10,114 nt of DNA from a virus, in UHGV virus genome UHGV-0885813; one strand, written 5' to 3'. Numbering within the stretch: position 1 is the first letter of the stretch; each line of letters starts with the position of its first letter. Shown here one piece after another: positions 1-8,423 of the stretch. The notes beneath the pieces are model-generated. The model worked only from the letters and a program-made list of their open reading frames with translations, was not told the DNA's origin and ran no database searches. The translations under genes and the position numbers were made by a program.

Positions 1-26
1 GCGCCTGCGTAATTACCGCTCACGCT

Positions 27-350
27 ATGGCGCTATCAGTAATGACTGAGGAATTAACAATGAAAACAATGAAGCTAAACATCGACCTCGGAAAATACGT
101 TATTACCGGAACAAAACACGATCTGATTCTTAGCGAAAGAGGAATTATCAAAGAAGGCGAGAATGCAGGGAAAGAAACACTAAGTCGTATCGGTTATTAC
201 AGCAAGTTTGAGCATCTGGTCAAAGAGTTATGCAACCGTGAAATCCTGTTATCTCAGGCGCAGACGCTACAGGATATTCAGCAGCATATCGAAACTTTAG
301 GTATGTCACTTAGCATGGCTATTGACCAGTTCGTTGAGAGTAAATCATGA
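27..350 (+). CDS. hypothetical phage early protein; true start may be ATG at 60 or upstream of the window
   Basis: ORF of 107 aa; GAGGA at 48-52 precedes the ATG at 60 (MKTMKLN...). The frame is also open back to the window start. No recognisable domain. Confidence 0.4.
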
Positions 351-507
351 GAGGACTTGCATACAATCCCGGCATTCTTCCGGCAGAAATGATTATTCGC
401 CAACGCGTAAAGCCAATGCCATCGAGAGAGGGATTGCTTAAGAGAAATTCTTTTCCATCAGTGAATCAAAACAAATATCTGAATGCGATGTTGCGGAGTG
501 GGAAGAA

Positions 508-1029
508 ATGAAACAAATGTCACTAATTGAGATGGATGGTTTTCTGAAAGGTAAATGCATCCCACGAGATTTAAAGGTTAACGAAACAAACGCTGAATAT
601 CTTGTGCGTAAATTTGCTGAAGCGGAGGCCAAGATTTCGGCTCTGTCAGAAGACCAACAGAGAGCGATTGAGTCAATTAAGCAGGCTGATGCAGCTGTTA
701 AGTTGGCACACGAGAAGTTTTCGGCGCTGGCTGCGGAGAATGCGGGAATAAAGTCTGCAATTCCAGAACCACGGGATATTGAGGACGACAATGACAATAT
801 GGATGACGTATCTCTTGCTGAAGATTTCGGGTTCAATCATGCAATAGAACTGATGAGGAGACGGATTCCTGAAACTCCGGCAACAGATGCTTTCCTGGCT
901 GAAGTACGGGCGCAGGGCGTGGAGATGGCTATGGAGCATATGCAGTCGAGCGGTTCGTTAACATTTGGAGATTGCTACATATCACTTAACGAGTTCGCCG
1001 CCGAGCTACGTAAAGGAGGCAACCAGTGA
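508..1029 (+). CDS. hypothetical acidic, coiled-coil-like phage early protein
   Basis: ORF of 173 aa with GGAG at 495-498 upstream of the ATG. Its stop overlaps the next start (GTGA at 1026-1029). No recognisable domain. Confidence 0.55.
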
Positions 1030-1325
1030 CTGTATGTCTTATTGATAAACGTCGACGTGGGCAACAAATACCATCTGTTGAAATGCCGAATCACACATGG
1101 TTTTGCGTACTTGATATCGATGGTATGGATACGTTGATCGACACTCGTCATTACTGCGATACCGCAACAGCTACTCCTGCAAAAGCAAAGAAAATGGCTG
1201 CTCTGATAGAAAACTGGACTCCACCTGATGGTTGGTGCAATGGGAATGATCGAGATTGGCACGAAAAAATGAAGGGCTATATCTGCGATTTTTTACGTAA
1301 ATGCAACGGATTCAGGGTGATGTGA
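1026..1325 (+). CDS. hypothetical Cys-rich small phage protein
   Basis: GTG start preceded by AGGAGG at 1012-1017 with good spacing, overlapping the upstream stop (translational coupling). 99 aa; alternative ATG at 1084. Confidence 0.5.
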   Translation: MTVCLIDKRRRGQQIPSVEMPNHTWFCVLDIDGMDTLIDTRHYCDTATATPAKAKKMAALIENWTPPDGWCNGNDRDWHEKMKGYICDFLRKCNGFRVM

Positions 1326-1326
1326 C

Positions 1327-1770
1327 ATGAGCAAGATTGACTATCAGGCACTGCGTGAAGCGGCAGAAAAAGCAACGTGTGGTGAGTGGTCGCTCGAATA
1401 TGGAGAGGGCCGATTTGATGGTGATGATGCACTAATTCATCGCGAGGCTGCTGGATATATTCCCATTTGCAGAATTGAAGGAGCGCATCCTGAAAGCGGT
1501 TTCGATGAAGATTTCCAAATGGAACAGCAGGCCAATGCTGAATTCATCGCCGCAGCCAGTCCAGCTACCGTCTTAGCGCTGCTGGGCGAGCTGGAAACAG
1601 CAAAAAAGCGCATAGCAGAACTGGAGGAGCGGGAAATACTGCTCCCGGAACGTAGCAGCATGCTTCATCGAACAGATTTCCACGAGGATTACCAAACGGT
1701 AATGGCATACAAAGTTTCTGAAGTCATCGCTGCAATCCGCTCCGCTGGCATTCGCATCAAAGGAGAGTGA
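1327..1770 (+). CDS. Ead/Ea22-like family protein
   Basis: N-terminus MSKIDYQALREAAEKAT..GEW matches the conserved start I recall for Ead/Ea22-like lambdoid early proteins. ATG lies 1 nt after the upstream stop. Confidence 0.7.
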   Translation: MSKIDYQALREAAEKATCGEWSLEYGEGRFDGDDALIHREAAGYIPICRIEGAHPESGFDEDFQMEQQANAEFIAAASPATVLALLGELETAKKRIAELEEREILLPERSSMLHRTDFHEDYQTVMAYKVSEVIAAIRSAGIRIKGE

Positions 1771-1771
1771 T

Positions 1772-1969
1772 ATGGATAAAAACACTACTGCTTACTGGAG
1801 TCTGTCACTTGATACCGAATGTCCCAAATGTGGTCACAATTTCGATCTGCTTTGTGATCCAGATTTCTGGGAGTTTTCTGGAGCTAAACAGGCATGTGAA
1901 GAAATAAAAGGTTACGAAACATGCTGTCCAGAATGTAACCATGAATTTAAAACAGATTTTGTGTATTGA
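1772..1969 (+). CDS. small zinc-ribbon protein (CxxC...CxxC)
   Basis: 65 aa with CPKC and CPEC pairs. AGGAG at 1761-1765 precedes the ATG, which overlaps the upstream stop region. Confidence 0.6.
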   Translation: MDKNTTAYWSLSLDTECPKCGHNFDLLCDPDFWEFSGAKQACEEIKGYETCCPECNHEFKTDFVY

Positions 1970-1979
1970 GGCATAACAA

Positions 1980-2732
1980 ATGACCACTATTACCAAAGAG
2001 TTCACCAAAGAGCAGTTGATTGAGCAGGCTAAGAAGAATATTGAGGTTCTTCGCGGTGCGGTGGAAAGAGTCCCAGGCGCTTCTGATGCGGCGGTTATTC
2101 ACCTCAAGCTGGCCGAAATTACGCTGGCATCGCTGGAGGCAAAACCACTGGTGCCCGTCATGTATAAAGGAATGAAACTATTAACAAAAGAGGGGCTTGA
2201 GCTTATTCGTGACGGTATCGCGGAGGCTACGGGACTGGAAGCAATGTGTATGGCTGATGCTTTGCTGTCTGGGGCACCAGCGCCAGTAGTGCCGGATAAT
2301 GCATCAGGGCCTCTTGCTTATGCTTACAAAGAGCTTACGCCTGAGATTATGCGCGGTCATATCGCTGTATTCGAGCGATATGGAATAGCCACAAACGATA
2401 GCTCTACCACAATTCAGGCACTGCGAATCGCGCTGGATGGTATAGAGCGGAGCAACGCCATGCTTAATGGTGACGAGCCTGTAAGCCAAACTTACAAGTT
2501 GAACAAGCTGGCTGGCAACTCTCCGGTAACTCCGGATGGTTGGATAAGCTGTAGTGAGCGAATGCCGGATAAGTTAATTCCGGTAATGGTCATGTATGAA
2601 GACGGTGAGATGTGGTCTGCAATGTGGAATGGTAATCGCTGGGATGATGGCACCGAATATCCGGATCCGCACTCAGTTACGCACTGGCGTGAAATGCCAG
2701 CAGCACCGAAGCAGGAGGTTAACCGTAGCTAA
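1980..2732 (+). CDS. phage early protein with C-terminal DUF551-type domain
   Basis: 250 aa. C-terminus WISCSERMPDKLIPVMVMYEDGE..W.G.RW.....PDPHSVTHWREMP fits the DUF551 signature (W-x-S/C-x-E-x-P ... VTHW-x-P-x-P). GAGG at 1967-1970. Confidence 0.7.
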   Translation: MTTITKEFTKEQLIEQAKKNIEVLRGAVERVPGASDAAVIHLKLAEITLASLEAKPLVPVMYKGMKLLTKEGLELIRDGIAEATGLEAMCMADALLSGAPAPVVPDNASGPLAYAYKELTPEIMRGHIAVFERYGIATNDSSTTIQALRIALDGIERSNAMLNGDEPVSQTYKLNKLAGNSPVTPDGWISCSERMPDKLIPVMVMYEDGEMWSAMWNGNRWDDGTEYPDPHSVTHWREMPAAPKQEVNRS

Positions 2733-2769
2733 CCTGCAACTTGCCGTCAAAGGTGAATACTTCGATGCC

Positions 2770-3009
2770 ATGATTCGCGGAGATAAAACGGAAGAGTATC
2801 GCCTGTGTAATGACTACTGGAATAAGCGAATTATGTTCCGCGAGTATGACCGCCTGATTATCACAAAGGGATATCCGAAGCGCGACGACTTCAGTCGCAG
2901 AATTGATGTCCCATATGACGGATATGAAATCAAGACAATCACACATCCCCACTTCGGCGATAAACCGGTAAAGGTTTACGCGATAAAGGTGAATATCGGC
3001 AATGAATAA
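2770..3009 (+). CDS. ASCH/PUA-like small protein; start codon uncertain, homology appears to begin upstream of the first ATG
   Basis: Frame encodes ...NLQLAVKGEYFDAMIRGDKTEEYRLCNDYWNKRI..., which fits the phage ASCH-domain N-terminal pattern (L.L.LK.KWFD.I.SG.K.EEYR...YW.KR). The first in-frame ATG is at 2770; upstream in-frame there is only a CTG at 2734. Confidence 0.45.
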   Translation: MIRGDKTEEYRLCNDYWNKRIMFREYDRLIITKGYPKRDDFSRRIDVPYDGYEIKTITHPHFGDKPVKVYAIKVNIGNE

Positions 3010-3081
3010 CAATCCTAGCACTCGAGGGGATTTCTTTTATCTGAACTCGCTACGGCGGGTTTTGTTTTTTGGAGATGATAA

Positions 3082-3249
3082 ATGCACTTCCGAGTCACAG
3101 GTGAATGGAATGGAGAACCATTCAACAGAGTTATCGAAGCCGAGAACATCAGCGACTGCTATGACCACTGGATGCTGTGGGCGCAGATAGCACATGCAGA
3201 CGTAACCAACATTCGAATTGAAGAACTGAAAGAACACCAAGCCGCCTGA
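3082..3249 (+). CDS. small hypothetical protein (55 aa), not in the supplied ORF track
   Basis: ATG at 3082 preceded by GGAG at 3071-3074 with 7-nt spacing. Protein-like composition (MHFRVTGEWNGEPFNRVIEAENISDCYDHWMLWAQIAHADVTNIRIEELKEHQAA). Stop TGA sits in the loop of a hairpin followed by a T-run. Confidence 0.45.
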   Translation: MHFRVTGEWNGEPFNRVIEAENISDCYDHWMLWAQIAHADVTNIRIEELKEHQAA

Positions 3250-3261
3250 TGGCGGTTTTTT
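3241..3261 (+). terminator. putative intrinsic terminator (short GC hairpin plus T6)
   Basis: GCCGCC-TGAT-GGCGG followed by TTTTTT. The stem is only 5-6 bp, so it may be weak. Confidence 0.4.
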
Positions 3262-3306
3262 CTTGCCTGATTTGCAGGTTCGATTCCCTATTCGGAGATA
3301 GCACTC

Positions 3307-3507
3307 ATGCAACACGAACTACAGCCTGATTCACTGGTTGATTTGAAATTCATCATGGCCGATACTGGCTTCGGTAAAACCTTCATCTACGACCGGATTA
3401 AGTCCGGCGACCTGCCAAAAGCCAAAGTTATCCACGGACGAGCAAGATGGTTATATCGTGACCATTGTGAATTCAAAAATAAGCTCTTAAGCCGCGCTAA
3501 TGGGTAA
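3307..3507 (+). CDS. torI: AlpA/Xis-family recombination directionality factor (excisionase), TorI-like
   Basis: 66 aa. Central ...MADTGFGKTFIYDRIKSGDLPKAKVIHGRARWLYRD... fits the AlpA/Vis/TorI winged-helix family. It lies immediately upstream of the attP core and the integrase, and length and sequence match my recollection of E. coli KplE1 TorI. GGAG at 3293-3296. Confidence 0.75.
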   Translation: MQHELQPDSLVDLKFIMADTGFGKTFIYDRIKSGDLPKAKVIHGRARWLYRDHCEFKNKLLSRANG

Positions 3508-3522
3508 AATAGCGGGTAAAAT
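3502..3522 (+). repeat. direct repeat GGGTAAAAT x2 (12-bp spacing), candidate arm-type Int/RDF binding sites
   Basis: GGGTAAAAT at 3502-3510 and 3514-3522. The same 8-mer recurs at 3712-3720, and inverted as TTTTACCC at 3734-3741 and 3749-3756, flanking the core. Confidence 0.4.
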
Positions 3523-3580
3523 ATTTCTCACATCTAAAAAATATCATTCCAATCAATCCCCTGCCGCGCCAAGTAGATGT

Positions 3581-3595
3581 CTGCAGGGGACACCA
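3581..3595. other. attP core: 15-nt identity to the 3' end of tRNA-Arg(CCU) argW (CTGCAGGGGACACCA)
   Basis: Matches the T-stem 3' half, acceptor 3' strand, discriminator and CCA of argW as I recall it. Lies between the excisionase and the integrase, as expected for an argW-integrating element. Confidence 0.6.
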
Positions 3596-3690
3596 TTTAT
3601 CAGTTCGCCCCCATCCGTACCAGTCCGCAAAATCCCCTGAATATCAAGCCTTCCGTAGATTCACGGTTCGTCATGGTTCGCGTCAGATCG

Positions 3691-3720
3691 TTGACAGCCG
3701 CACTCCATGACGGGTAAAAA
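3691..3720 (+). promoter_or_regulatory. putative sigma70 promoter of the integrase gene overlapping GGGTAAAA repeats
   Basis: TTGACA at 3691-3696, 18-bp spacer, TAAAAA at 3715-3720. Overlapped or flanked by GGGTAAAAA (3712-3720), TTTTACCC x2 (3734-3756) and tandem TCAYGGTTCG x2 (3661-3680). Confidence 0.4.
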
Positions 3721-3756
3721 GTGGATAAAATAATTTTACCCACCGGATTTTTACCC
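3712..3756 (+). repeat. GGGTAAAA / TTTTACCC inverted-repeat cluster at the int 5' end (candidate arm-type sites)
   Basis: GGGTAAAAA at 3712-3720; TTTTACCC at 3734-3741 and 3749-3756. Same 8-mer as the direct repeats at 3502-3522. Confidence 0.4.
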
Positions 3757-4914
3757 ATGCTCACCGTTAAGCAGATTGAAGCAGCAAAGCCGAAAGAAAA
3801 ACCATACCGCCTTCTCGATGGTAATGGCCTGTACCTTTATGTCCCTGTATCAGGGAAAAAGGTATGGCAGCTTCGCTACAAGATTGACGGTAAGGAGAAA
3901 ATCCTGACTGTCGGAAAATATCCGCTTATGACTTTGCAGGAAGCAAGGGATAAGGCATGGACTGCGAGGAAAGACATCTCGGTTGGCATCGATCCGGTAA
4001 AGGCGAAAAAGGCTTCGTCTAACAACAATTCCTTTAGTGCGATTTACAAGGAATGGTACGAGCACAAGAAGCAAGTCTGGTCAGTAGGCTATGCAAACGA
4101 ACTTGCCAAAATGTTTGATGACGACATTTTACCCATCATCGGCGGTCTTGAGATTCAGGATATTGAGCCGATGCAACTGTTGGAAGTAATCCGCAGATTT
4201 GAAGATCGCGGTGCAATGGAGCGAGCCAACAAAGCACGCAGAAGATGCGGCGAGGTTTTCCGTTACGCTATTGTCACCGGAAGGGCTAAATATAACCCGG
4301 CACCTGACCTTGCAGACGCCATGAAGGGATACCGCAAGAAGAACTTCCCGTTTCTTCCTGCAGACCAGATCCCGGCATTCAACAAAGCACTGGCAACATT
4401 TTCAGGAAGTATCGTATCGCTCATTGCGACCAAAGTTTTACGCTACACAGCCCTAAGAACGAAAGAGCTTCGTTCCATGCTATGGAAGAACGTCGATTTT
4501 GAAAACAGGATTATCACCATCGACGCCAGTGTGATGAAGGGACGCAAAATTCATGTGGTCCCGATGTCAGACCAGGTGGTTGAACTTCTCACTACGCTAA
4601 GCTCCATCACCAAACCAGTATCAGAGTTTGTTTTTGCCGGGCGCAACGATAAGAAGAAGCCAATCTGCGAGAACGCGGTTCTACTTGTGATCAAACAAAT
4701 CGGCTATGAGGGTCTGGAAAGCGGTCACGGATTCAGGCATGAATTCAGCACGATTATGAACGAGCACGAATGGCCTGCTGACGCTATTGAAGTGCAACTG
4801 GCACATGCCAACGGCGGATCTGTGCGTGGAATTTACAACCATGCTCAGTATCTCGATAAGCGCAGAGAAATGATGCAGTGGTGGGCGGACTGGCTTGATG
4901 AAAAGGTGGCTTAA
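3757..4914 (+). CDS. intS: P4-family tyrosine integrase, IntS-like (argW-specific)
   Basis: 385 aa from the ATG at 3757 (MLTVKQIEAAKPKEKPYRLLDGNGLYL...). Shares P4/CP4-57 integrase hallmarks (..KQIEAAKPK.., C-terminal ..MMQWWADWLD..). The ORF track's GTG at 3721 is an alternative start but falls inside the promoter/repeat region. Confidence 0.9.
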   Translation: MLTVKQIEAAKPKEKPYRLLDGNGLYLYVPVSGKKVWQLRYKIDGKEKILTVGKYPLMTLQEARDKAWTARKDISVGIDPVKAKKASSNNNSFSAIYKEWYEHKKQVWSVGYANELAKMFDDDILPIIGGLEIQDIEPMQLLEVIRRFEDRGAMERANKARRRCGEVFRYAIVTGRAKYNPAPDLADAMKGYRKKNFPFLPADQIPAFNKALATFSGSIVSLIATKVLRYTALRTKELRSMLWKNVDFENRIITIDASVMKGRKIHVVPMSDQVVELLTTLSSITKPVSEFVFAGRNDKKKPICENAVLLVIKQIGYEGLESGHGFRHEFSTIMNEHEWPADAIEVQLAHANGGSVRGIYNHAQYLDKRREMMQWWADWLDEKVA

Positions 4915-5225: not shown

Positions 5226-6215
5226 ATGAACAGAAATGCCGGAATGGATGCTCTTAGAATCATAAGTTGCTTTATGGTTGTTTGTATACATACATGCCTG
5301 AATTATAAATATGGTCAAGATTCTCTCAACAACCTTCTCGCATTATTTGGTCAATCTTTATTCAGAATTGGACTCCCTGTTTTTTTTATTCTTAGCGGTT
5401 ATTTCATACTTAATTCAAGAGTTGACTTTACCGCAAGTTCTTTTTTCAAAAGAATAAAGAAAATTGCCATCCCTTTTATTTTTTATAGCATAGCCCACTG
5501 GTTTATAATAAATAAAGGAATGACAGTAAGTTTTTCTGGAGTGGCGGAATATATCAATGCTTTAACAGTAAGAAATTCAATATCTATACATTTTTAGTTC
5601 GTTTACTCACTAATTGGGATATATATATTCGCACAACCAATAAATTATCTTTTAAAAGATATTTCTATTAATGGTTCATTTTTTGGATTAATCATAATAG
5701 CTTTTTTGTTTCTATATAATGGTGACCTGCCTTCTATTGGTAATGTCTTACCTGTTTCAAGCGTCGATAAGTGGACTGCTTACTTTGTTGCAGGAGGTTT
5801 TCTTGCAAGGATAAAAGACAAAATATCCATTAATCAAGCTATTATATTAACACTAATTGGATACACATCCATTGTGTTTATTTCTGTTTACAATAGCAAG
5901 AACAATCATCCAATGCCATACGACTTCAGCATTAGTATGTTTGTTGCTTGTTGTGGAGTTGTCCTGCTATTTTCAAAATTACATATCAAAAACAGCAAAT
6001 TATTAAGCAATCTTTCAGAATCTACGTACGGGGCATACCTAATACACATTTGTATTTTAAAGTTATTATCTCCATTTTACTTTACTCACATTCATAAGCC
6101 CGGCGTAATAAATTATTTTTTTACCACATTTATTTTAGCGGTGTTTGTTTTTACAGTTTCTATAACCATATCATTGATGTTGTTACCTATATTTAAAAAT
6201 CGATATTTGAAATAG
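5226..6215 (+). pseudogene. oac: Oac-like O-antigen acyltransferase (acyltransferase-3 family) interrupted by an in-frame amber codon at 5595-5597
   Basis: Track ORFs 5226-5597 and 5706-6215 are in the same frame, and everything between them is open except the TAG at 5595-5597. The joined product (about 329 aa) is a multi-pass membrane protein with N-terminal ..DALRIISCFMVVCIHT.. and FFILSGYF motifs typical of Acyl_transf_3 (Oac/OafA). The TAG falls where the family has a conserved Trp (H-F/L-W-F). Markedly AT-rich by eye compared with int. Confidence 0.75.
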
Positions 6216-6339: not shown

Positions 6340-8232
6340 CTAGGTGTTAGTGATTTTCTTCCATGCAGATGCTGTAGTACCAGTTGCTTTATACCACTCA
6401 AACTGACCAGCAGTCGTGTCAAGATATTCTTCTCCAATATATCTTGGAACTACATTGTTTATTGGGTTTTGCGCCTGTTTCCTAACAAAGAAACGATCAT
6501 CCCAAAGCTTTTGTGTTTCATAGTTTAGAAATGACATTCCAGCGATGGTTAATAATGGTGATCCTGATGATTGATTTGAATTAATATACATACTAATCAC
6601 ATGCCATCCTCGTGATGCTATATGTATACGTGCCGATTTTTGCGTATCATACGATGAGTTTCTATCTATTGAAAGTGTATTATCTTTAACATTTAAGTTT
6701 AATGTTGCCGATGGTTTTGATGTGATATCACCATTAATAATTTCAACAACTCTATCATCAAGAGAATATTGTGATTGAGGAAGTCCAAAATCAAGCTCTA
6801 TAGATAAAGCTGAATTTGCCACAATAATGCTTGGGGTGAAAATAAGATCATCCTCATCAGCGTAGAAGCATATAAACACTTTATTTCCATACTGGCTTGT
6901 TTCAACAACATAACCACCAGTGTAACTTGCTAACGGCGGGCTAACCATTGATGGTTTATTTAACTGAGTTCCCCATGCCCCATCCTTTAGCTTCATAGAT
7001 GTTTCGAAAGTTCTTACATTAATATTTGTTCCTGATTTAACTTTCGTTGGGTTATTAAATTTAGAAAGTAGAAATGCAAAAACTTTTGCCGCAAGGTATT
7101 TATAACCCTCTTCACGAAAATGAACATTATCACTAAATCTTGTTGAGTCAATACCGTAAAAAACTTCTACACCGTCAAGAACTGGTATTCCGTATTGTTC
7201 GCCAATATTAAAAACAGCTTCTCTATAAGCATCAAGAAGCCTTACATTTGCACCATATTGTTTCTGTGGAGGTGGAGTTATCAAAATTACAGCAGCCCCC
7301 TTCACAAGTTCTCTCGCAATTATTTTCTTATAATAAAAAATATAGTCTGATATTGACTGGTAAGGGCTGAATCCCTGTGCAGCATCATTTGTTCCGTACA
7401 TGATAATAGTTAAATCACTATTAACATTTACATCCCAATCACCCCACCCTAATTTAGTATTATCACCTGAATAGCCTTGGTTAATAACATTAATGGATGA
7501 TGAAAATGCTTGCTGAAGATAGCCTTGCAACGCCTGAGGGTAAGTTGTTGCTGCCCTTGTTTTATTATGAACACGACCTGATGCTGTAGGAGTTGTATCT
7601 GGTGGAGTCGGTGCAACTGTAGTGTCTTCTCCATATGTCAGGGAATCACCTCGGCAAACGATGGTTATCGCGTCTGAATCACGTGCTACCTTTTCTGCAT
7701 ACTTGCTAAGATTTAGTCTTTGTAGAGCGTGTAATTGTTTCCCTAGTATTATTTGCGATCCAATATCGACAGAGTCATCTGAAAGCGCGAGGTTCATAGC
7801 TTTGTCGGCAACATCAACAGAGTTTGCAATATCTTTTGCATGCTTACCTGCAATGATAACTTCGCTACCTTCTTGCGCTAATCTTTGCTCAAATTGGTCT
7901 GGATCGTACTTCAGCACATTAGGAAAATAGAACTGCTGCACACCGTACGCATCATAAACAGCCATAGAATGGCCTTGCACAGTTACGAACTTGGCAATCT
8001 GTCCGTTATATACCGGATATCCAGCGGCGTTAATGATGATTGGTTGCGAAACAGGAACGTGAGAGCCGTCTTCGTTCTCCACATAAACCTGAATCCGGTT
8101 TTCAGGATTTACCGGGTCAGTGTCAATTTTACCGATATAAATTTTGCCATTGGCTACGGCTTTAAAAGAACGCGCCATAGTGAAGAGTTGCGAAGGCATT
8201 CCAATAACAGCATTTGGGGTGATTTCCGACAT
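6340..8232 (-). CDS. tailspike protein: P22/Sf6-type head-binding N-terminus, central SGNH/GDSL hydrolase domain, uncharacterised C-terminal domain
   Basis: From the internal ATG (plus-strand 8230-8232, preceded by AGGA): [69 protein letters not shown] closely matches the P22 gp9 / Sf6 head-binding domain. Downstream are all four SGNH blocks in order: GDSLTYG (Ser codon at 7642-7644), [18 protein letters not shown] (His codon at 7120-7122). 630 aa from this start. Confidence 0.85.
7066..7683 (-). other. SGNH/GDSL esterase domain within the tailspike
   Basis: Blocks I, II, III and V (GDSL, G, GxND, DxxH) span roughly residues 215-420 of the track ORF. Confidence 0.7.
7876..8232 (-). other. 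P22-like tailspike head-binding (particle-binding) domain
   Basis: About 115 aa with high similarity to the P22 gp9 N-terminus as recalled ([22 protein letters not shown]...[13 protein letters not shown]...NVLKYDPDQ). Confidence 0.75.
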
Positions 8233-8423
8233 GTGCACAATCCTATTAGATTGATTCGATAAAGAAGGGAAAGGAGTTAATGCTACAAATGACGCTATTG
8301 ATTTGAAAAATGATCTTCTGTTCATTTAAAACACACTTTAAGCATGACATTTGGTAGTAATGTAAGAAAAAATTACAATCAACTCCATAGCTATTTAATT
8401 TTTAACAGTAATTCACATCTGCA

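Follow-up and report, generated by a model that had tools for sequence, protein, structure and literature searches.

Among the closest described relatives of the genes considered here is gp27 of phage HK446, which is Oad2 (OLD anti-defence 2). OLD is a P2 ATPase-TOPRIM abortive-infection nuclease that is triggered by RecBCD inhibitors such as Abc2, and a preprint of July 2026 reports that Oad2 rescues the toxicity of P2 OLD, that it does so by direct binding to OLD, whose tetramer is thereby kept from being activated, and that it is related to EaE of P22 (bioRxiv 10.64898/2026.07.10.737580). A second described relative is Ea22 of lambda, a tetrameric coiled-coil protein (PMC10834534) whose pro-lysogenic role is described in published work (PMC10834534, PMC7093339), and a third point of reference is the GenBank record of Sf6, in which boundary (linker) sequences of lambdoid mosaic genomes (bsq2, bsq3) are annotated. 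We analysed UHGV virus genome UHGV-0885813, a stretch of 10,114 nucleotides (nt) that is referred to here as the window, and in particular four consecutive open reading frames (ORFs), ORF1 to ORF4 (Table 1). The original prediction, made from the letters of the DNA and a list of its ORFs, had described them as a translationally coupled cluster of four small early genes of unknown function. The reading that we favour, to which we assign a probability of about 0.7, is that they are part of an ordinary patchwork of accessory cassettes in an Sf6/P22-like early-left operon and that ORF1 is a candidate anti-defence protein.

ORF1, a relative of Oad2

When ORF1 was compared with HK446 gp27 by BLASTP the two were 43% identical over the full length (173 of 175 amino acids (aa), E 6e-39). 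ORF1 also matched phrog_614 with an E value of 9e-59, and it was 75% identical to a protein annotated as EaE in phage Gally. By these matches ORF1 is a member of the EaE/Oad2 family (HK446 gp27, P22 EaE, HK620 HkaH; phrog_614), a very large one with more than 8,000 word-sharing relatives, in 311 phage records. The likeness to Oad2 lies in the N-terminal 38 aa, which are nearly identical in the two proteins, in the internal motif and the LRKGGNQ tail that both of them carry, and in size and acidity, ORF1 having 173 aa and an isoelectric point (pI) of 4.7 and Oad2 175 aa and a pI of 4.8. It lies also in position, with ORF1 in the same slot right after abc2-DUF5405-DUF2737 in the pL operon. The gene order abc2-DUF5405-DUF2737-ORF1 is that of HK446 gp30-gp29-gp28-gp27, and positions 1-621 of the window are 95% identical to HK446. 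The suggestion that this slot holds anti-defence genes thus has a direct precedent, as Oad2 occupies the place of ORF1 and is homologous to it.

Along its length ORF1 consists of the conserved N-terminal 38 aa, a coiled-coil helix (residues ~26-84), variable segment 1 (VS1), which is acidic and disordered, the internal motif, variable segment 2 (VS2), and the tail LRKGGNQ, VS1 and VS2 being the two variable segments of EaE-type proteins. The EaE framework of N-terminus, internal motif and LRKGGNQ tail, each column of which is either fully invariant or conserved to 90% or more among 51 sequences, is present in ORF1, and the acidic linker of VS1 has 10 acidic residues and 1 basic residue in 26. 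In the AlphaFold2 model a confident helix at 26-84 is followed by a disordered acidic linker and a helical C-terminal part, and this long helix together with the low pI agrees with the acidic coiled-coil-like protein that had been predicted. A PDB sequence search with ORF1 gave no real relatives. Against Pfam Ead_Ea22 ORF1 scored 27.8 bits (threshold 27), over profile positions 79-138 only, and this weak match arises because the C-terminal part of the profile reflects EaD-EaE fusion proteins; as a homologue of lambda Ea22 ORF1 was rejected (E 0.66).

Among 113 close relatives of ORF1 the EaE family showed 8 alleles of the N-terminus and coil, 19 of VS1 and 14 of VS2, which occurred in 47 combinations, and the variable segments were separated by invariant linkers, namely the internal motif and LRKGGNQ. 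In the order coil/VS1/VS2, ORF1 has the alleles 0/0/0 and Oad2 1/1/1, so that the presumed specificity segments of Oad2 are not shared. This is where the two proteins differ, the coil allele, VS1 and VS2 of ORF1 all being its own.

The most likely role of ORF1, by analogy, would be to neutralise a host immune or stress effector by direct binding as Oad2 does, since the protein to which it is homologous, and whose slot it shares, has been demonstrated to inhibit OLD, and since it lies next to a RecBCD inhibitor gene of the type that sets OLD off. Its target specificity would probably differ from that of Oad2, because both variable segments differ from those of Oad2.

Several points weigh against this reading and the larger one of which it is part. 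A homologue of Oad2 in HK75, 54% identical to it by the figure given there, is reported not to inhibit OLD (bioRxiv 10.64898/2026.07.10.737580), and VS1 and VS2 of this protein, HK75 gp28, which is reported inactive against OLD, differ from those of Oad2. ORF1 is no closer to Oad2 than the HK75 homologue is, with coil allele, VS1 and VS2 all different, and judged by these segments an anti-OLD activity of ORF1 cannot be assumed. HK75 also carries a homologue of ORF2 that is 93% identical and yet it is OLD-sensitive, which makes ORF2 an unlikely OLD inhibitor in that context. The overall confidence of the ORF1 model is low, with a predicted local distance difference test score (pLDDT) of 68 and a predicted template modelling score (pTM) of 0.29, which is too low for a fold search from the model to be warranted. 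Finally, the conserved tails of these proteins may persist only as linkers at the DNA level, for ribosome binding or recombination, and this would weaken arguments that are drawn from protein motifs.

The other three gene products

ORF3 scored 83.9 bits against Pfam Ead_Ea22 (PF13935; threshold 27) over profile positions 1-90. Residues 1-110 share 87% identity with Sf6 gp21, and the final 60 match the C-terminal end of an Ead protein from E. coli MB53, 238 aa long, at 90% identity. A full-length match of 87% was found in phage N7, and a PDB sequence search with ORF3 matched no chain. The protein is laid out as an N-domain of the Sf6 gp21 type, a short coil, a C-terminal module of the ILLPERSS... 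type and the tail AGIRIKGE. When compared with lambda Ea22 it showed 34% identity over 101 aa, covering the N-terminus and the coil (E 1e-6), and the C-terminal domain was unmatched. On this homology ORF3 is a short EaD/Ea22-family protein without the long central coil. Like lambda Ea22 and P22 EaD, it has the N-terminus of the family (MSKIDYQALREAAEKA) and a coiled coil and is encoded upstream of xis/int, and its tail …GIRIKGE resembles …GIKVKGE of EaD. It differs in length, having 147 aa compared to 182 in Ea22 and 197 in EaD, and in having neither the long ERERNQQYIK… coil nor the C-terminal domain of lambda Ea22 that has been solved by nuclear magnetic resonance. By analogy, ORF3 would probably act like lambda Ea22, as an oligomeric coiled coil that biases the choice between lysis and lysogeny via a host partner.

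ORF4 (CPKC...CPEC) matched phrog_4173 with an E value of 9.5e-28, and in a HMMER scan its phrog_4173-type relatives formed 216 clusters at 50% identity, mostly stand-alone proteins of 62-70 aa. W9, C17, C20, D25, C52 and C55 are invariant in 59 diverse members of the family, all 59 of which match phrog_4173. The zinc ribbon that had been predicted for ORF4 is borne out by the two invariant CxxC knuckles, and by this pattern ORF4 is a conserved CxxC...CxxC zinc ribbon and a predicted metal binder. It has no specific Pfam family, and a PDB profile search gave generic zinc-finger noise only. As a small zinc-binding-type protein encoded just 3' of an Ea22-type gene ORF4 recalls ea8.5 of lambda, but no homology to Ea8.5 or to Lar-type small zinc proteins could be detected: both were rejected, with hhalign probabilities of 4.2% for lambda Ea8.5 and 2.7% for Lar, the BLASTP E value in this comparison was 0.012, and there was no Pfam match to Lar (PF14354) at E <= 0.1. 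The exact ORF4 protein is very common, being listed in 1675 index blocks. Homologues of ORF4 with 83-88% amino acid identity are present in virulent Klebsiella myophages (among them NC_041900 KpV52, NC_042041 KpV79 and NC_071128) that are about 48 kb long and are otherwise unrelated to P22-like phages, an indication that temperate and lytic phages have exchanged the gene by horizontal transfer. Its distant relatives lie amid small early or replication-region ORFs, and among these no informative neighbours were found.

An alternative that is compatible with the patchwork reading is that these genes are modulators of lysis and lysogeny like the lambda exo-xis genes, with Ea22 pro-lysogenic and others pro-lytic, and that they act via host physiology and not via defence. 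The four genes lie where lambda has its exo-xis region, ORF3 belongs to Pfam Ead_Ea22 and has the N-terminus and coil in common with lambda Ea22, and the pro-lysogenic role of Ea22 is the published one cited above. We consider this possible rather than likely. ORF3 is without the C-terminal domain of lambda Ea22, a domain which alone cannot reproduce the activity and which varies between phages (PMC10834534). The close relatives of ORF4 in Klebsiella phages that are virulent, and for which the choice of lysogeny does not arise, argue for a role that is not tied to lysogeny, and in the family of ORF1 the one protein that has been defined biochemically acts against defence.

ORF2 matched Pfam DUF7739 (PF24881) with 76.1 bits (cutoff 27, E 3e-21), residues 1-93 aligning to positions 1-92 of the 98 in the profile, and it matched phrog_1239 with an E value of 2e-55. 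The family is small, comprising 46 clusters (Enterobacterales, Plesiomonas), and it is present in 20 phage records. Sf6 gp22 and HK75 gp27 each share 93% identity with ORF2, are equally long (99 aa) and likewise overlap the gene before them by 4 nt; that upstream gene is DUF2737 in Sf6 and EaE-type in the window and in HK75, and otherwise there is no substantive difference. The original prediction had labelled ORF2 Cys-rich, but only C93 of its six cysteines is invariant in the family, and for this reason the label does not describe the family and a Cys-dependent or zinc protein was rejected. The AlphaFold2 model is a compact alpha/beta domain with a pLDDT of 90.5. Such a small domain could be a DNA mimic or an immunity-type inhibitor of a host DNA-binding protein or of a nuclease or tRNase, and we regard this as improbable. 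Foldseek with the ORF2 model against the PDB found nothing significant (best E 0.33, sequence identity to the matches 8-10%), and ORF2 has a pI of 7.6 with 13 acidic compared to 14 basic residues, unlike DNA mimics. A DMP12-like mimic was rejected, as fold similarity together with a strongly acidic surface was not found, and, as already mentioned, HK75 carries the gene and is still sensitive to OLD. In the patchwork that we prefer, ORF2 and ORF4, as an alpha/beta domain and a zinc ribbon, would be compact binding modules.

It had been stated that only the Ead/Ea22-like member is recognisable. This does not hold, since ORF1 is EaE-type (PHROG 614), ORF2 is a DUF7739 protein and ORF4 belongs to phrog_4173. 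Going by these assignments every component is in a known family (EaE/Oad2, DUF7739, EaD/Ea22, phrog_4173), and the mosaic organisation is already known in these phages. None of the four matches a characterised housekeeping function, a NCBIfam scan of the four proteins gave nothing meaningful, and PADLOC models searched with ORF1 to ORF4 and two neighbours gave no matches at E <= 0.1. What stands of the original interpretation is that the genes are anti-defence candidates, and what does not stand is that the proteins have no obvious family and that the genes form a cluster of four.

Boundary sequences and assortment of the genes

The stretches of this region that resemble other phages begin and end at gene junctions, and as far as can be read from the DNA the elements at these junctions are at once the tail of the upstream protein, a ribosome-binding site and the next start codon. 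At the first of them (1009-1029), where similarity to Sf6 resumes, the window aligns with the final 21 nt of Sf6 gp23, which is a DUF2737 gene just before gp22 and has a product that ends in RKGGKQ, and the ORF1-type tail encoded there is conserved across EaE variants. The second is bsq3 of Sf6 itself, which was found 100% identical over its 31 nt just 3' of HK446 oad2, and also in HK75, loci L005 and L006, and Gally. The third was examined through ORF4. In 10 of the 10 places read (L015-L024, at ~3960-4010 in each) the exact ORF4 lies directly 3' of an Ead gene, and the Ead proteins in front of it all end in AGIRIKGE (one has IRIKGD) on bodies of 135-226 aa with unrelated C-terminal modules. 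The DNA of the junction between the Ead tail and ORF4 was identical in 7 of 8 loci read and differed at a few bases in L020. The idea that ORF4 goes with one particular type of Ead C-terminal domain was discarded, as only the 8-aa tail and the junction are common. Compared to the boundary sequences in the Sf6 GenBank record, what is added here is that 1009-1029 and 1744-1774 double as coding tail and ribosome-binding site and that similar linkers are present inside the EaE and EaD frames.

The genes between these elements come and go. L005, L006 and Gally lack the ORF2 cassette (1030-1327), so that in them an ORF1-type gene abuts an Ead gene, ORF2 is directly after DUF2737 in Sf6 and there is no ORF1, and behind the exact ORF1 protein other genes stand in L005 and L006. 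Judged from these arrangements the four genes are independently assorting cassettes and not a dedicated four-gene system, because each gene occurs without the others. The same pattern is repeated inside the genes, since the Ead proteins have an internal variable-module pattern equivalent to that of EaE, and by these comparisons ORF1 (EaE) and ORF3 (EaD/Ea22) are both internally mosaic, with conserved ends, a coil core and interchangeable variable segments. The exact combination is rare, the exact ORF1 protein being found on 5 contigs and the exact ORF3 protein on 1, and this is what a shuffling region produces. The boundary sequences would give both translational coupling and sites for the swapping of cassettes by recombination. 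In public data there are also chimeric frames (P0184, P0183, P0181, P0130, P0123) in which pieces of neighbouring ea genes are joined, among them one fusion of DUF2737 with DUF7739 and one of DUF7739 with a segment that ends in …IRIKGE; in P0184 an EaE N-terminus is fused to an ORF4 C-terminus at 'NET'. From their composition these frames look like products of short-homology recombination in the ea region, and they illustrate illegitimate recombination that is still going on.

It may be asked whether the four genes nevertheless function as a single system, for instance as a complex of several subunits or a module of the toxin/antitoxin kind, the parts of which depend on one another and in which coupling fixes the stoichiometry. 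The junctions are tight (-4, +1 and +1 nt), and HK75 has an EaE-like gene that overlaps a DUF7739 gene behind it by 4 nt. In the predicted folding of the mRNA (956-1061) the Shine-Dalgarno (SD) sequence and GTG of ORF2 are paired, with a mean probability of being unpaired of 0.12 compared to 0.45-0.61 for neighbouring genes in the chain, so that ORF2 may depend on translation of ORF1. The ORF1/ORF2 junction is, by this prediction, the best candidate for obligatory translational coupling, but only tentatively, because the partner strand of this hairpin, which lies inside VS2 of ORF1, is not conserved in Sf6. We find a single system very unlikely, since ORF1 occurs without ORF2 in L005, L006 and Gally and ORF2 without ORF1 in Sf6, ORF4 stands behind many different Ead genes and also in Klebsiella myophages, flanking unrelated genes are coupled just as tightly, and the PADLOC search gave no matches.

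Operon context and implications

Table 1. Coordinates in the window of the genes, junctions, boundary sequences and other features
Feature	Position	Strand	Description
abc2 3' end (anti-RecBCD)	1..49	+	stop TGA 47-49; aligned to Sf6 abc2 end
DUF5405 gene (Sf6 gp24 / HK446 gp29 type)	60..350	+	Pfam DUF5405, phrog_154
DUF2737 gene (HkaI / P22 orf56 type)	347..511	+	Pfam DUF2737, E 4e-31
ORF1	508..1029	+	ATG start, 173 aa; ORF list
Boundary sequence, ORF1 tail	1009..1029	+	encodes RKGGNQ-stop; SD AAGGAGG 1012-1018; ORF2 GTG
ORF1/ORF2 junction	1026..1029	+	GTGA (sequence read directly)
ORF2	1026..1325	+	GTG start, 99 aa; ORF list
ORF2/ORF3 junction	1323..1329	+	TGA-C-ATG; stop 1323-1325, ATG 1327
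ORF3	1327..1770	+	ATG start, 147 aa; ORF list
Boundary sequence bsq3	1328..1358	+	first 31 nt of Ead-type genes; annotated at Sf6 gp21 start
Boundary sequence, Ead tail (GCTGGCATTCGCATCAAAGGAGAGTGATATG)	1744..1774	+	encodes AGIRIKGE-stop; SD AAAGGAG; ORF4 ATG
ORF3/ORF4 junction	1768..1774	+	TGA-T-ATG; stop 1768-1770, ATG 1772
ORF4	1772..1969	+	ATG start, 65 aa; ORF list
DUF551 (EaA-type) gene	1980..2732	+	Pfam DUF551, E 1.7e-17; 10-nt gap after ORF4
ASCH-like gene (phrog_625)	2725..3009	+	continues packed run to 3009
Terminator-like hairpin	3043..3062	+	5' of phrog_676 gene
phrog_676 gene	3082..3249		55 aa; just 5' of xis
Terminator-like hairpin	3239..3258	+	3' end of phrog_676 gene
O-antigen acyltransferase (Pfam Acyl_transf_3)	5226..6215	+	two ORFs, 5226-5597 (profile 1-104) and 5706-6215 (profile 187-325)
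Tailspike	6340..8325	-	P22-type head-binding domain and GDSL/SGNH esterase domain

The four ORFs with their lengths and junctions were confirmed from the ORF list and by reading the sequence, and each has its own SD sequence as had been claimed, the energies of the duplex with the 3' end of 16S rRNA being -6.9, -11.6, -7.2 and -12.1 kcal/mol at the starts of ORF1 to ORF4. When the annotated frames were compared with homologous DNA, the ratio of nonsynonymous to synonymous substitution rates (dN/dS) was 0.21-0.29 for ORF2, 0.11 and 0.28 for parts of ORF3 and 0.05 for the N-terminus of ORF1. In the wrong frames of ORF2 there were 1 synonymous and 12 nonsynonymous changes in one and 0 and 11 in the other. 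For ORF4 the sole DNA homologue compared was identical, so its coding support is the conservation of the family across 216 clusters. Antisense ORFs in the region were without family support, with a single marginal PHROG match (E 0.0014), and no Rfam families or notable repeats were found there. The four ORFs are real protein-coding genes, with purifying selection in the annotated frames. That some or all of them are evolutionary debris, chimeric frames made by boundary recombination and transcribed without a selected function, is very unlikely. In its favour there are evident chimeras in databases (P0184, P0183, P0130, P0123), the exact ORF3 protein was seen on a single contig and the exact ORF1 protein on five, and the neighbouring ASCH-like gene is without its GTG start. 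The dN/dS of 0.05-0.29 in the annotated frames with a nonsynonymous excess in other frames, the conserved cores that the ORF2 and ORF4 families keep across genera, the confident fold of ORF2 and the good SD sites at all four starts all speak against it.

The four genes do lie, as had been stated, in a row of small, co-directional and coupled early-left genes, but they are not a discrete cluster, since the coupling extends on both sides. The packed run goes from the 3' end of abc2 (1-49) to about 3009, and the junction distances from the DUF5405 gene through the DUF551 gene are -4, -4, -4, +1, +1 and +10 nt, with an ATGA overlap at each end of the DUF2737 gene (347-350 and 508-511). Plus-strand genes make up 95% of 60-3507. 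When 1-3600 was shuffled 1000 times and ORFs of at least 60 aa with junction spacing like that of the window were chained, no chain of at least 4 ORFs was obtained, the longest being 3, in 4 shuffles. In 1-3800 there was 1 promoter-like site, at 3707, compared to 6.3 +/- 2.4 expected, and a hairpin scan found no good terminator-like hairpin before 3043, which fits a single polycistronic transcript. The two terminator-like hairpins in Table 1 flank the phrog_676 gene at the position of the pI promoter and bsq2 region in Sf6.

Upstream, window 1-495 is 97.8% identical in DNA to 1501-1995 of the Sf6 locus L001, where abc2 ends at 1549, which is window position 49, and the order in HK446 is the same. 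The product of the DUF5405 gene is 99% identical to HK446 gp29, and its start is most likely ATG 60 and not the first ATG at 27, because the SD duplex is -6.1 kcal/mol at 60 compared to +0.5 at 27 and the homologues have 96 aa. Downstream, the ASCH-like gene reads GTA at 2725, the place at which a GTG start stands behind a strong SD (CAGGAGG) in E. coli MB53 and L005, the change to GTA also being present in L006, and the next in-frame ATG is at 2770, which would give 79 aa. Loss of the start codon or truncation of the N-terminus is possible on this comparison.

The window is the integrase-proximal end of a Sf6/HK620/P22-like (Lederbergvirus-type) temperate phage or prophage. It also encodes xis (TorI type), int, a split O-antigen acyltransferase, a tailspike and a DNA-transfer protein, and ORF1 to ORF4 are within the 'ea' segment, from abc2 to xis, of the early-left (pL-type) operon, which is the counterpart of the lambda exo-xis region. 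The similarity of its DNA to known phages is high (94-98%) and comes in patches, with 95-98% identity to Sf6, HK620, HK446 and others. A contig from an ENA metagenome (L007) agrees with window 1-3600 at every position and has matching gene calls up to its end at 4909, none of 50,697 phage records had at least 80% of window 1-3600 in one place, and none of 5,426 complete E. coli genomes had at least 80% of 508-1969 in one place. Judging from its two ORFs the split acyltransferase looks disrupted, and it was probably once an oac-like gene for serotype conversion that has become a pseudogene. In the tailspike the GDSL/SGNH domain, which replaces the P22- or Sf6-type endoglycosidase, suggests a receptor-destroying enzyme of the deacetylase type.

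In the patchwork reading the four genes would encode small proteins that are not essential to the phage and that work by attaching to proteins of the host. A bolder proposal, which we make only tentatively, is that EaE (ORF1) and EaD/Ea22 (ORF3) are coiled-coil scaffolds which display interchangeable recognition cassettes, and that these are shuffled combinatorially via conserved in-frame linkers to retarget inhibitors to different immune effectors of the host, OLD-family or other nucleases for example. The allele of ORF1, with its acidic disordered VS1 and a VS2 of its own, would then be directed against a defence protein other than P2 OLD, and ORF2 and ORF4 would be further single-domain inhibitors. 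We found in the literature no functional data for DUF7739, DUF2737, DUF5405 or DUF4752, nor any on exo-xis genes with defence.

Nothing in the window is unprecedented, and the value of the analysis lies in annotation and in the choice of candidates for anti-defence screens. The segment from abc2 to xis is very common in P22-like and lambdoid prophages of E. coli, Shigella and Salmonella and is almost entirely unannotated. Placing ORF1 with Oad2 and EaE gives a testable hypothesis for a very large family, namely that ORF1 may be a protein inhibitor of an abortive-infection nuclease which the RecBCD inhibitor of the phage itself would otherwise set off, and from the cassette layout of EaE the specificity of such inhibitors should reside in VS1 and VS2.

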